A stretch of DNA of 61,332 nt from an uncultured Thermomicrobiales bacterium (lineage in GTDB: Bacteria > Chloroflexota > Chloroflexia > Thermomicrobiales > UBA6265), in assembly GCA_902806345.1 (NCBI GenBank), contig CADCWF010000251.1, positions 1 through 61,332 on the forward strand, given 5' to 3'. Shown here in pieces: positions 10,916 to 15,804 of the stretch (positions are counted from its first letter, which is position 1; every line of letters starts with the position of its first letter). Under the pieces are notes generated by a model. The model ran no database searches, was not told the origin of the DNA, and worked only from the letters and a program-made list of their open reading frames with translations. The position numbers and the translations under genes are program-made.

Positions 10916-10931
10916 TGGCACGCGACGTGCA
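10916..10931 (+). promoter_or_regulatory. Candidate sigma-54 (-24/-12) promoter
   Basis: TGGCACG-CGAC-GTGCA with exact GG-N10-GC spacing, about 50 nt upstream of the small ORF at 10981. Confidence 0.6.
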
Positions 10932-11344: not shown

Positions 11345-12625
11345 ATGGCGACCGATCCGGTCGAGCAGGTAACGGTCGAGACCTTTCCGGCAGTAGGGGC
11401 GGCGGAACTGCTCGTCGAGGCGAAGCGCCTCGCGGAACTCTCCCCGGGGCCGGACCTCCCCTACCTCTCGGCGACGATCGACCTGAGCCCCGAGGGCGGA
11501 AGCCCCAACCGCCGCCCCGGCCGTGAGGTGTTCGACCGGATGGTGGCCGAGCGGATCGCGGAGATGTCGGCCCACGACCCGGCCCGCCTCGGTCTGGAGG
11601 CAACACTGGGACGGGCCGCCGCGGCGCTCGATAGACTCGATCCGTCAAGCCGCGGCGCCCTCGTCGTCTGCGGCGGTCCGGACGAGGTGGCGGAGACGAT
11701 CCCGGCGTCGCTGCCGCTGCCGAACCGGCTCACCCTCGGGCCGACACCTTCCCTGCTCGATCTGGTCCGGCTGGCCGACGACGAATCGTCTTATGCCGTG
11801 GTCATCGCGGACCAGCGGGATGCTGAGATCCTCCTGGTCTCCGCCGCATCCCCCGAGCTCCAGATCTCCGTCGAAGCCAACGAGTTTCCCCGCAAGCAGA
11901 TGCAGGGCGAGTGGTCGCAGCGACGCTACCAAATGCGCGCCGACGAGCGGATCGAGGCGTTCGCTCGGACGCTGGCCCAGGAGACCCGGCGGTTGGTTGA
12001 ATCGGGCCGGGCCGCACACGTCGTGATCGCGGCGGACGAGCCGATGCGCTCGACGCTCAAGCACGAATCCCACCAGATCGTGACCAACAAGCTCGTCGGC
12101 GAGGTCGGCGTGATGCTGGGCGCGGCCCCCCAGTCGGTCGTCGAACGGACCCGACCGGTTGTCGATGCGGCGGAACGGGCGCGCGAAAGCGAAGCGGCAA
12201 AGGCGGTGCAGGACGGTGCCGGCCCCGGCGGCCGCAGCGTCACCGGGGCGGTCGAGACGTTGACCGCGCTCCAGACCGGGCAGGTCAAGACGCTGGTGAT
12301 GAACGATGACTTCCAGGCCCGCGGATGGGCCGACTTCGCGCTCGGCAGCTACGGGGTGGGTGAGCCGCCAGCCGAGCACCCGGCCGGGGGCGACGCGGTC
12401 GATCTCCGCCCGGTGGCGCTAGAGCAGGAGCTGGTCCGTCTGGCGCTGCTGACCGGGGCGGAGATCGAGATCGTCCGCACGACGGCACCGGTCGGTCCCG
12501 ACGAAGCCACGCGTGACGGCGGCGACGGCCGAACGGAGGCGGCGCGTCTCCTCGACGGGCTCGGTGGCGTCGGCGCGACGCTGCGGTTCACCCTCGCCAG
12601 CGACCGCTCGACGGCGGAGATGTAG
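11345..12625 (+). CDS. Bacterial aeRF1/Vms1-like release-factor superfamily protein (baeRF)
   Basis: RKQMQGEWSQRRYQMRADE loop (family pattern GGxSQxRY). C-terminal eRF1 domain 3-like segment (VETLTALQTGQVKTLVM...GGVGATLRF). Confidence 0.82.
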   Translation: MATDPVEQVTVETFPAVGAAELLVEAKRLAELSPGPDLPYLSATIDLSPEGGSPNRRPGREVFDRMVAERIAEMSAHDPARLGLEATLGRAAAALDRLDPSSRGALVVCGGPDEVAETIPASLPLPNRLTLGPTPSLLDLVRLADDESSYAVVIADQRDAEILLVSAASPELQISVEANEFPRKQMQGEWSQRRYQMRADERIEAFARTLAQETRRLVESGRAAHVVIAADEPMRSTLKHESHQIVTNKLVGEVGVMLGAAPQSVVERTRPVVDAAERARESEAAKAVQDGAGPGGRSVTGAVETLTALQTGQVKTLVMNDDFQARGWADFALGSYGVGEPPAEHPAGGDAVDLRPVALEQELVRLALLTGAEIEIVRTTAPVGPDEATRDGGDGRTEAARLLDGLGGVGATLRFTLASDRSTAEM

Positions 12626-12846: not shown

Positions 12847-14343
12847 TCACCGCATCGTCGAGGGCAGGATGCCGAGTTCGGCCCGGTACTTCGCGACCGT
12901 GCGGCGGGCGATTCTGATGCCGCGATCCATCAGCAGGTCGCAGATGCGGCGGTCGGTGAGGTGCTCACCCTTCTGCGTCTCCCGCTCGACCAGCTCCTTG
13001 ATCACGTCCTTGACACTCAGCGAGGGGGTGAAAAAGTCGCTGAACGGGATCACCTTGCGCGACGGCAGCATGACGTACTTGTTGGCGGTGGCGCGGCTGA
13101 CCGTGGATTCGTGGACGCCGACCTGCTGGGCAACGATGGCCCGCGTCAGCGGCTTCAACTCACGGACGCCGCCGCGGAGGAACGGCTCCTGGAGGTCACA
13201 GATGCAGCGGCTGATCTTGAGGAGCGTCTCCCGCCGCTGCTGGATGTTGGCGATGAAGAGCTTGGCGCGCGAGCTGTAGCTGCGGATGTGGTCGCGGTCC
13301 GCGGCCGAGACGCCGTTCGCCGGCGCGCCGGCGCCATGGGCGTGTCCGGTGAGATGACCGTTGGCCTTGGCGAGACCGTTGCCGTTGCCGTTGGCCGAAA
13401 CGGACCGCTTACGCCCCATCTCGCTCGCCAGCTTGTCGTACACCGGGCTCAGCTTGAGGTGGAAGTGGGAGGTGTCGACGATCTCGACGACGAGCTCGCT
13501 GTCCTTGATGGAGATCACCACGTCCGGGGCCACGTAGTGGGCGCCCGAAGGCGTGCGCCAGGAGCGGGCCTGCTGCGACTGGAGCGGGAAGGGGTTGAGG
13601 AAGGACCGGATGAAGGTCCGGGCCTCCTCGACCTCGTCCGGCGAGAGACCCAGCTCCTTGCCGATCTGGCCGAACCGGTGAGCCCCCAACTCCCCCAGGT
13701 GGCGGCCGACGATGGCCTCGACCTGGGGCGGCACGTCGATCCCGGAGCGACGCAGGTAGGCGATCTGGAGGAGCAGCGACTCCTGGAGCGAGCGGGCGCC
13801 AACGCCGACCGGGGCGACATCCTGGATGACCTCGACGATCGCGTCGATCTCCTCGATGGTGCGGCCGGTCAAGCGCGCCAGTTCGGCGAGGTCGCACGTC
13901 AGTAGGCCCCGCTCGTCGATGGCGTCGACCAGGTACTCGGCGATCGGGTACTCCTCGGGCGAGAGGACGGTGCGGGCATCGCGCAGGATCACCGCGCGGA
14001 TGTCGTCGCTGTGGGCGACCAGGGTCAAGGGGTCGAAATCGTCGCTGTCCTCCCGCGTCTGGGACAGGTTCACGAGCAGTTCCGGCATGTCCTCGTAGCG
14101 CTCGGGGTCGGCGCGGTCACGCTGGCTGACGAGGCAGATGGGGCAGAAGCTTCCTTCGAGGACGTTGCCGCAGACGGGACACGAGGGGAAGTCTTCGGCC
14201 TCAAGCGCCGGGTTGGCATCCATCTCCGCCTGGACGGCGGTTTGCAACTCCTGTCGGGAGAGGCTCAGGATGTGGTTGGCCTCGATCAGGCTCGGCGAGA
14301 CCCACGACCGCATGTCCTGCGAGAGATCGAATCCAATATCCAT
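12847..14343 (-). CDS. rpoN: RNA polymerase sigma-54 factor
   Basis: Region I ELQTAVQAEMDANPALE, VGVGARSLQESLLLQ, HTH LKPLT...VGVHESTVSRATANKY, and RpoN box IARRTVAKYRAELGI. Confidence 0.97.
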   Translation of the reverse strand: MDIGFDLSQDMRSWVSPSLIEANHILSLSRQELQTAVQAEMDANPALEAEDFPSCPVCGNVLEGSFCPICLVSQRDRADPERYEDMPELLVNLSQTREDSDDFDPLTLVAHSDDIRAVILRDARTVLSPEEYPIAEYLVDAIDERGLLTCDLAELARLTGRTIEEIDAIVEVIQDVAPVGVGARSLQESLLLQIAYLRRSGIDVPPQVEAIVGRHLGELGAHRFGQIGKELGLSPDEVEEARTFIRSFLNPFPLQSQQARSWRTPSGAHYVAPDVVISIKDSELVVEIVDTSHFHLKLSPVYDKLASEMGRKRSVSANGNGNGLAKANGHLTGHAHGAGAPANGVSAADRDHIRSYSSRAKLFIANIQQRRETLLKISRCICDLQEPFLRGGVRELKPLTRAIVAQQVGVHESTVSRATANKYVMLPSRKVIPFSDFFTPSLSVKDVIKELVERETQKGEHLTDRRICDLLMDRGIRIARRTVAKYRAELGILPSTMR

Positions 14344-14463: not shown

Positions 14464-14479
14464 TGGCAGGTTTCTTGCT
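14464..14479 (+). promoter_or_regulatory. Candidate sigma-54 promoter facing the site-2 protease gene
   Basis: TGGCAGG-TTTC-TTGCT with GG-N10-GC spacing and a canonical TTGC. Confidence 0.65.
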
Positions 14480-14495
14480 AACCGCCGCCGGCAAG

Positions 14496-14511
14496 CGCAG
14501 GAACCGTGCCA
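14496..14511 (-). promoter_or_regulatory. Candidate sigma-54 site facing rpoN (autoregulation)
   Basis: Minus strand reads TGGCACG-GTTC-CTGCG: GG-N10-GC spacing with a perfect -24 element. Confidence 0.6.
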
Positions 14512-14649
14512 CAAAGACCACGGTGGGTGCCAACGCTCGCCGATATCGTCGCGCCGGAGAGACGGTCCTCGCCGTCCAACTGGTATCCTGTCGCACGTTG
14601 GCGCAAGATTTCAGGGATCGTTCGGCGGGAGGGGACTCGGACAACCAGC

Positions 14650-15804
14650 ATGCGATCCCTGACGGTCGGCCGCCTCCGCGGAATCGCCATCCGGCTCCAC
14701 CCGACGCTCGCCATCGTGCCGGTCTGGGTCGTCTTCGACTGGGACCGGGTCGGTGGGCTTGGCCCGGGCTCGGTTGTCTTCGGGCTCCTGTTCGTGGCGC
14801 TCGTCTTCGGCTGCGTGTTGCTGCACGAGCTCGGCCACGCGGTGATGGCGGCCGAGTTCGGCGTCGTCGTCCACGATGTCACGCTCTCGGTGGTCGGCGG
14901 CGTCGCCCGTATGGCCCACGTGCCGCTCTCGCCGCGGGCCGAAGCGCAGATCGCCCTCGCCGGGCCGGCGGTGAACCTGGCGCTGGTGGTGGTGCTGGCG
15001 CCGTGGCTCCTCCTGGCCGGGCTGATCGGCGGCCTCGACGGCGGCGACTTCCTGCTCGAAGTGCTCCGGCCGACGATGCCCGGTCTCCTCGCGGGGCTGA
15101 TCGTTGCGAACCTGATGCTGGTGGTCTTCAACCTCCTGCCTGCCTTCCCAATGGACGGCGGACGTGTCCTGCGGGCGGTGCTGACGCGGGGGTTTGGGCG
15201 GGAGACGGGCACGCGGGCGGCCGTCGTCGTCGGTCAGGCGCTGGCGGTCCTGATGGCAATTGCGGCGGTGTTCTGGATCAAGAGCCTGATGTTGCTGCTG
15301 ATCGCGCTCTTCGTCATCGTCGTCGCCCACGCCGAGGGGCGGGCGGTGCGCGTCGAATCGGCGCTGCGGCGGATGCGGGTCGGCCAGTTTGCCCTATGGG
15401 ACATGGGTGGCGTGGCGCCGGGGCAACCGCTCGCCTACGCCCTCCGGGGTGGCCCGCGCGATGTGGTCGTGACCGAGAATGGCCGCGTCGTCGGCATGCT
15501 CTGGCGCAACACACTGCTGAACGCGCTCGCCCAGGGAGCCTCTGGTCGCCGGATCGCCGAGGTCATGGACGGCAATGTCGCCTCGGTCGACATCGACGAC
15601 TCGGTGTACGATGTCCAGCAGCGGATGAACGACCTCCAGCGATGGGCGATCCCCGTCACCGAAGACGGCTTGTACCGGGGCGTCTTCACCGTCGACCGCC
15701 TCTCCCACGTCTACCGTCAGGTGTTGCCCGGTCCCCAGGCGATCGGCGAGCCGGCCGGGTTCGCCGGCGCCCTTACCGGCTGGCTGCGGACGCTGGCGCG
15801 GTAG
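14650..15804 (+). CDS. Site-2 protease (M50 zinc metalloprotease) with C-terminal CBS pair
   Basis: HELGH zinc motif, NLLPAFPMDGGR, and a C-terminal CBS-like region (VVVTENGRVVGML...PVTEDGLYRGVFT). Confidence 0.93.
   Translation: MRSLTVGRLRGIAIRLHPTLAIVPVWVVFDWDRVGGLGPGSVVFGLLFVALVFGCVLLHELGHAVMAAEFGVVVHDVTLSVVGGVARMAHVPLSPRAEAQIALAGPAVNLALVVVLAPWLLLAGLIGGLDGGDFLLEVLRPTMPGLLAGLIVANLMLVVFNLLPAFPMDGGRVLRAVLTRGFGRETGTRAAVVVGQALAVLMAIAAVFWIKSLMLLLIALFVIVVAHAEGRAVRVESALRRMRVGQFALWDMGGVAPGQPLAYALRGGPRDVVVTENGRVVGMLWRNTLLNALAQGASGRRIAEVMDGNVASVDIDDSVYDVQQRMNDLQRWAIPVTEDGLYRGVFTVDRLSHVYRQVLPGPQAIGEPAGFAGALTGWLRTLAR

Follow-up and report, generated by a model that had tools for sequence, protein, structure and literature searches.

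The window, by which we mean the whole 61,332-nucleotide stretch of DNA that was analysed, belongs to a soil Thermomicrobiales bacterium whose assembly (5.08 Mb, 71% G+C, 377 contigs) is 90% complete. It contains two divergent genes separated by a spacer of 306 bp: rpoN, which encodes sigma-54 (12847-14343, minus strand), and a site-2 protease (S2P) gene (14650-15804, plus strand). A sequence-only reading of the same DNA had named both genes, and Pfam matches bear out the assignments. RpoN (498 aa; Sigma54_AID, Sigma54_CBD and Sigma54_DBD) is intact, with Region I, the core-binding domain and a DNA-binding domain that includes the RpoN box ARRTVAKYR, as judged from Pfam and the translation, and its ATG at 14343 is kept in all aligned relatives. 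The protease combines Peptidase_M50 with C-terminal CBS domains, and its catalytic motifs HELGH (HExxH) and NLLPAFPMDG (NxxPxxxxDG) are intact in the translation. Downstream of the S2P gene are an Rrf2 regulator and then a class-V aminotransferase (Pfam). The translation of RpoN also has a Cys4 motif, CPVC-x8-CPIC, straight after Region I (window 14134-14181, residues about 55-70), and a Gly/Asn/His-rich insert that precedes the DNA-binding domain. To our knowledge, a zinc-ribbon-like module is unusual for sigma-54.

This rpoN is the sole sigma-54 gene of the genome: a search of the whole genome, at 90% completeness, returned one match and no second copy. The genome likewise encodes a single true enhancer-binding protein, with REC, sigma-54 AAA+ and HTH_8 domains (G000:C116:15176-16552; one strong PF00158 match). 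Neither a sigma-54 box nor an obvious partner kinase gene adjoins the gene for this activator. In two other genomes, an orthologue of the activator is the divergent neighbour of rpoN (G017 and G018; 71% and 66% identity, respectively). The spacer between rpoN and the activator gene holds back-to-back sigma-54 boxes in G017 and only a box aimed at rpoN in G018.

Within the spacer between rpoN and S2P, two sigma-54 boxes face each other. Box 1 (14464-14479, plus strand; TGGCAGGTTTCTTGCT) agrees with TGGCACN5TTGCW at 11 of 12 positions (one mismatch) and points from rpoN toward S2P, and box 2 (14496-14511, minus strand; TGGCACGGTTCCTGCG) agrees at 10 of 12 (two mismatches) and is aimed at rpoN. 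The GG and GC doublets are exactly 10 bp apart in both. With the C of the GC doublet set as −12, the predicted starts are at 14490 (+) for box 1 and 14485 (−) for box 2, both inside the 16 bp that separate the boxes (14480-14495), and each box occupies +7 to +22 relative to the predicted start of the opposite box. The predicted 5′ untranslated regions (UTRs) are about 141 nt from the box 2 start to the rpoN ATG and, in the window, 160 nt from the box 1 start to S2P. All of this agrees with the sequence-only reading, which had placed both boxes at these positions, 16 bp apart, and predicted the same two starts. Its expectation that the two complexes would exclude each other also holds up, because the interlocked geometry makes simultaneous productive use implausible. 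A 16-bp gap would make productive use of both boxes impossible, and two closed complexes would probably clash sterically, because the footprint of the sigma-54 holoenzyme extends from about −34 to −5.

A lone box is not above chance. The window contains 18 matches with at most two mismatches (12.5 expected), and the genome contains 273 sites that match at 10 or more of the 12 positions when the GG and GC doublets are required. The pair is another matter: nowhere else in the 5.08-Mb genome do two boxes of 10/12 or better face each other across 40 bp or less, and 0.15 such pairs would be expected. A third minus-strand match at 14517-14532 (TGGCACCCACCGTGGT) was rejected because it has no GC doublet and lacks conservation.

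Divergent pairing of rpoN and S2P was found at 45 loci, all in Thermomicrobiales, which provide 39 distinct spacers. Box 1 is present in every one of these 39 spacers and is always directed away from rpoN (consensus TGGCAAGATTCTTGCT); its TGG and TTGC columns are invariant in the alignments. No other part of the spacers is strongly conserved, the one further recurring signal being a weaker −10-like motif upstream of box 1. Box 2, with a gap of 16–18 bp, was found in the window, in six other spacers (L002, L003, L007, L008, L035 and L039) and in a contig-end fragment of G004. These eight genomes form a clade that is monophyletic in the RpoN tree (SH-aLRT 94) and nested among lineages that have box 1 only. 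Conservation of the boxes in orthologous intergenic regions had been put forward as a check by the sequence-only reading: box 1 passes it in 39 of 39 spacers, and box 2 only within the eight-genome clade. The distribution points to box 1 as an ancestral, order-wide element and to box 2 as one derived in a single clade.

Within the face-to-face clade, box 1 has a column identity of 0.875 and box 2 one of 0.866, compared with 0.51–0.56 for the rest of the spacer; both boxes also exceed the first 30 coding bases of rpoN or S2P. The sequence between the boxes is not conserved (column identity 0.56), and the length of this gap is kept at 16–18 bp across the clade. In the clade alignment, conservation is confined to box 1, box 2 and a short block close to S2P, and the remaining spacer cannot be aligned. 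No further conserved block that might serve as an enhancer was found in this alignment upstream of either box. The clade consensus of box 2 (TGGCACGGTTCTTGCG) is nearer than box 1 to the canonical promoter (TGGCACG...TTGC), and the box invariably points toward rpoN. There is no covariation between the variable positions of the two boxes, and the sigma-54 consensus thus seems to constrain each box independently. Both are very probably real sites for the sigma-54 holoenzyme, as judged from these patterns.

Outside the clade, boxes aimed at rpoN appear to have arisen repeatedly and independently. In some lineages, about 70 bp separate box 1 from a far box 2 (L057-L061 and L064-L067); others have only boxes directed toward rpoN, with matches of up to 12/12 (L013, L015, L016, L018 and L025-L028); and the face-to-face layout reappears in L026 and in the Anaerolineae (L077/L078). 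Inspection by eye found no motif common to the toward-rpoN promoters of these other lineages. In the Anaerolineae metagenome-assembled genomes (L077, L078 and L080), the region upstream of rpoN reads TGGCATATTTCTTGCT, followed by a gap of 22–23 bp and then AGGCACGCTTCGTGCT on the opposite strand, and a receiver-only response regulator is encoded divergently next to rpoN. This Anaerolineae pair seems to be independent of the pair in the Thermomicrobiales clade. In total, conserved sigma-54 sites are present at the sigma-54 gene itself in more than 60 Chloroflexota genomes.

The surroundings of box 1 in the relatives suggest what it may originally have done. In 29 of 34 distinct regions that have an away-pointing box and a TATA element, the rpoN strand reads TTGCCA-N17/18-TATA[C/A]T, and a (C/G)AGTATAG motif is found just upstream of box 1 in most other genera. 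Read as its reverse complement, the −24 element of box 1 supplies the −35 hexamer TTGCCA in most relatives. By its sequence, TTGCCA-N17/18-TATACT would there be a textbook housekeeping (sigma-A) promoter for rpoN. Because box 1 overlaps this promoter, the sigma-54 and sigma-A polymerases would be mutually exclusive there, and the overlap implies that rpoN is probably repressed by occlusion in most relatives. Three loci offer a related arrangement, in which a −10-like hexamer (TATGAT or TATAGC) is found on the strand opposite to a sigma-54 box (box 1 in L023 and L066, the far box 2 in L067). The hexamer is only 4 nt past the TGG end of the box, so the box would lie over both the spacer and the −35 region of that promoter; for the far box 2 of L067, the promoter concerned would belong to S2P.

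The window and its clade depart from the ancestral layout. Box 1 of the window reads CTGCCA on the rpoN strand, where its likeness to a −35 hexamer is gone, and the TATACT element is absent from the box 2 clade. A consensus scan found no sigma-A promoter on the rpoN strand of the window spacer, and the same strand of seven clade spacers contained no TTGnnn-N16-19-TAnnnT, no TGnTAnnnT and no TAnWMT. A sigma-54 site thus lies over a housekeeping promoter in the relatives, whereas in the window and its clade it does not. Because the upstream gene is divergent, a promoter for rpoN is needed within the spacer, and box 2 is the only candidate. The window's clade therefore seems to have lost the sigma-A promoter and to have gained box 2 as the only recognizable promoter of rpoN; for box 1, we infer its present role in this clade from conservation alone. 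This evolutionary context, with an ancestral box 1 over a sigma-A promoter and a clade-derived box 2, was absent from the sequence-only reading.

That reading had proposed a switch that links rpoN autoregulation to the neighbouring protease. In such a switch, box 1 would be an active promoter of S2P (perhaps of an S2P–Rrf2–cysteine desulfurase unit) and box 2 the promoter of rpoN, and mutual exclusion would couple the two. Several observations are consistent with this idea: box 1 is always directed at S2P wherever S2P adjoins (39 of 39 linked spacers), and this gene pairing is itself widespread; the predicted 160-nt 5′ UTR is within the normal range; and box 1 is still conserved in the window's clade even though its −35 role is gone. 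In addition, one genome with no detectable rpoN (G006, 96% complete) has TGGCGCGGCACTTGCT (11/12) about 69 nt upstream of S2P (L094, G006:C84), which could be a relic or a chance match, unless rpoN is missing from the assembly. We nevertheless consider a promoter role of this kind unlikely, because box 1 stays with rpoN when the protease is elsewhere. The away-pointing box and the TATACT element are both kept at rpoN genes that have no S2P neighbour (L009, L019-L022, L042, L053, L054, L060 and L079). The divergent gene is moeA at two of these loci (L020 and L022), and at two others (L021 and L053) an alpha/beta hydrolase gene lies upstream and co-directional with rpoN, such that the box 1 orthologue points into the 3′ end of the hydrolase gene.

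The converse comparison gives the same picture. We examined 20 S2P upstream regions from genomes in which S2P is unlinked or rpoN is absent. The region from G004, at the end of a contig, turned out to carry the face-to-face pair of the clade itself; of the 19 that remain, which are unlinked, 18 had no sigma-54 box upstream of S2P, the exception being G006. The protease also has a probable housekeeping promoter of its own, predicted from an extended −10-like element (TGGTATCCT; 14581-14589, plus strand) about 60 nt upstream of its ATG, which corresponds to the short conserved block of the clade alignment. The pattern TGnTAnnnT occurs in 16 of the 39 linked spacers, compared with 2.5 expected from shuffles, and also in four unlinked S2P upstream regions. 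Nor is the stretch between box 1 and the S2P start conserved. A short palindrome (GCTCGCCGATATCGTCGCGC; 14535-14554) between box 2 and the S2P −10 element is likewise not conserved in the clade alignment. A regulatory link between S2P and the sigma factor that is independent of adjacency is thus not supported by either set of genomes. Taken together, these patterns indicate that box 1 follows rpoN and not the protease, and S2P is probably a bystander neighbour outside the circuit; the switch link to the protease is the one part of the sequence-only reading that we set aside.

Another possibility is that both boxes are pure operators on which the polymerase parks and never fires, with rpoN transcribed from a non-canonical promoter in the spacer and autoregulated only negatively. 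The holoenzyme is able to bind stably without an activator, and many of its sites are transcriptionally inactive (PMC4591121). The presumed ancestral role of box 1 in occlusion and the failure to find an enhancer in the clade alignment would fit as well, and a sole rpoN controlled in this way would avoid the restart problem of one that depends on its own product. However, this arrangement is rather improbable given that the relatives use textbook sigma-A promoters and that the rpoN strand of the seven clade spacers has no sigma-A-like element. The closeness of box 2 to the promoter consensus and its constant orientation toward rpoN also argue against a purely blocking role, as do the stand-alone toward-rpoN boxes of other lineages, with matches of up to 12/12. 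Moreover, repression by a sigma-54 roadblock was not seen at intragenic sites in Escherichia coli (PMC4591121).

It is highly improbable that the sigma-54 likeness is coincidental and that the 48 bp are instead an inverted repeat serving as the operator of a dimeric regulator, the enhancer of the activator or an RNA or DNA hairpin: the boxes do form an imperfect inverted repeat with a stable predicted RNA fold (−27.7 kcal/mol, z = −2.55), and the box 1 consensus includes the palindrome GCAAGAnTCTTGC, but the two arms show no covariation (at variable positions, identity is 4.25 within genomes and 4.45 between genomes), the invariant TGG falls outside the palindrome, lineages with TGGCGCG, TGGCTCG or TGGTCTG lose both the palindrome and the −35 likeness while keeping GG-N10-GC, box 1 stands alone in most genomes, the gap to box 2 ranges from 16 to about 70 bp, and the spacer has no Rfam match at E ≤ 1. 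The hairpin and the dimeric operator were therefore rejected, the fold being stable but its arms neither co-varying nor staying together in relatives.

On balance, we favour a model in which both boxes are sigma-54 polymerase sites that jointly autoregulate rpoN, with interlocked positive and negative effects. Autoregulation of rpoN had also been suggested by the sequence-only reading, and it is the best reading of the locus, because the boxes are conserved, box 1 tracks rpoN and box 2 is aimed at rpoN. In this model, box 1 would be a high-affinity site, antiparallel to rpoN, that holds the holoenzyme as a parked closed complex. In the ancestral state, sigma-54 polymerase on box 1 would keep the housekeeping polymerase off the rpoN promoter, which would amount to negative feedback. 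In the window's clade, box 2 would replace the lost sigma-A promoter, and sigma-54 would transcribe its own gene in a positive feedback loop, with the single NtrC-type activator of the genome assisting or gating transcription from box 2. Occupying +7 to +22 of the box 2 promoter, a polymerase held on box 1 would block or compete with this transcription and thereby limit the loop. S2P would be expressed from its own promoter, to which box 1 would add a little sigma-54-dependent transcription at most. What the comparison shows directly is the sequence, its conservation, its phylogenetic distribution and the overlap with sigma-A promoters in relatives; holoenzyme binding, the two starts, the need for the activator and the direction of the control are deduced from these.

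Two properties of the favoured model bear on how it might operate. As the same holoenzyme would occupy both sites, competition alone would give no concentration-dependent negative feedback. In addition, a sole rpoN that relies on its own product would have no obvious way to restart after loss of sigma-54, and a basal promoter of a kind that we did not recognize may exist. A bolder version, in which rpoN in the clade is transcribed solely by sigma-54 polymerase, would make sigma-54 an inducible, self-amplifying and self-limiting factor, gated by the single NtrC-type activator, that could act as a bistable on/off switch for a whole regulon; this we put forward tentatively, as more doubtful than the autoregulation itself.

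If sigma-54 controls a regulon in this genome, its candidate members include an operon for Balon-like ribosome hibernation as well as genes of envelope or glycosyltransferase type. A near-consensus sigma-54 box (TGGCACGCGACGTGCA; window 10916-10931, plus strand) is located about 430 nt upstream of an aeRF1/Balon-like gene (11345-12625) that is convergent on rpoN, and a similar box (TGGCACGCTGCGTGCA) is found 371 nt upstream of the aeRF1/Balon-like orthologue at L032. Elsewhere in the genome, divergent (back-to-back) pairs of good sigma-54 boxes at G000:C41:5323-5442 and G000:C300:26314-26439 precede glycosyltransferase-like (MLVCFSHLRW...), SDR and membrane-protein genes, and another box, at C204:16203, is found in front of a paralogue of the C41 gene. 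These C41, C300 and C204 sites may mark envelope or exopolysaccharide targets of the regulon. Our genome-wide regulon call, which used a GC3-based gene caller, was too noisy to classify the 273 matches, and these sites serve as leads only.

Elements of the favoured model have precedents. The sigma-54 holoenzyme is described as binding promoters in an inactive state (PMC4591121) and as repressing where its site overlaps another promoter (PMC4591121, citing Zafar et al. 2014). The single rpoN of Rhizobium leguminosarum is negatively autoregulated, as cited in PMC3538637, and the same paper describes rpoN2 of Rhizobium etli and Mesorhizobium loti within prxS-rpoN2, an operon that depends on NifA and sigma-54. 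The locus studied here resembles the R. leguminosarum case in having a sigma-54 site in the control region of rpoN itself, and it resembles overlapping sigma-54/sigma-70 promoters in that the −24 element on one strand is, in the relatives, the −35 hexamer on the other, which brings in the same logic of occlusion. It differs from both in its phylum, the Chloroflexota, and in a site that is antiparallel to rpoN. Unlike the occlusion cases, moreover, the window has no housekeeping promoter to occlude, and a second, opposed sigma-54 site is interlocked with the first instead.

The likeness to prxS-rpoN2 lies in a −24/−12 promoter (here predicted) that is aimed at an rpoN gene, such that sigma-54 would drive sigma-54. 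There, however, a constitutive rpoN1 supplies the first sigma-54, whereas here there is one rpoN and one activator, an opposed sigma-54 site lies 16 bp away and no enhancer was identified. The layout also recalls convergent or overlapping promoter pairs subject to transcriptional interference, in which promoters face each other, their starts cross and a polymerase must traverse the site of the other; in contrast to such pairs, both promoters here would use the same activator-dependent sigma factor, which is the product of one of the target genes. Our literature search found no description of such an opposed sigma-54 layout and no paper that deals with sigma-54 promoters or the control of rpoN in Chloroflexota, and rpoN autoregulation was not found in the Geobacter regulon papers. 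Autoregulation of rpoN and sigma-54-dependent rpoN copies are already known in Proteobacteria (PMC3538637), and occlusion by sigma-54 has been described as well (PMC4591121). What appears to be new is the phylum, the antiparallel overlap of −24 and −35 elements that is conserved across an order, and the interlocked pair of predicted sites at a sole rpoN with no recognizable housekeeping promoter.

Sigma-54 is usually treated as constitutive, with its regulon controlled only through activators, and we know of nothing that has been established about this sigma factor in Chloroflexota. The comparative series presented here outlines a possible evolutionary route, from a sigma-A promoter occluded by a sigma-54 site to a sigma-54 promoter interlocked with a sigma-54 site. 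It also corrects the tempting, unsupported idea that the adjacent intramembrane protease is a member of the circuit. The locus offers a compact natural case in which two convergent promoters, as predicted, would use the same activator-dependent polymerase. If the favoured model is true, the amount of sigma-54 would itself be a regulated variable in Chloroflexota.
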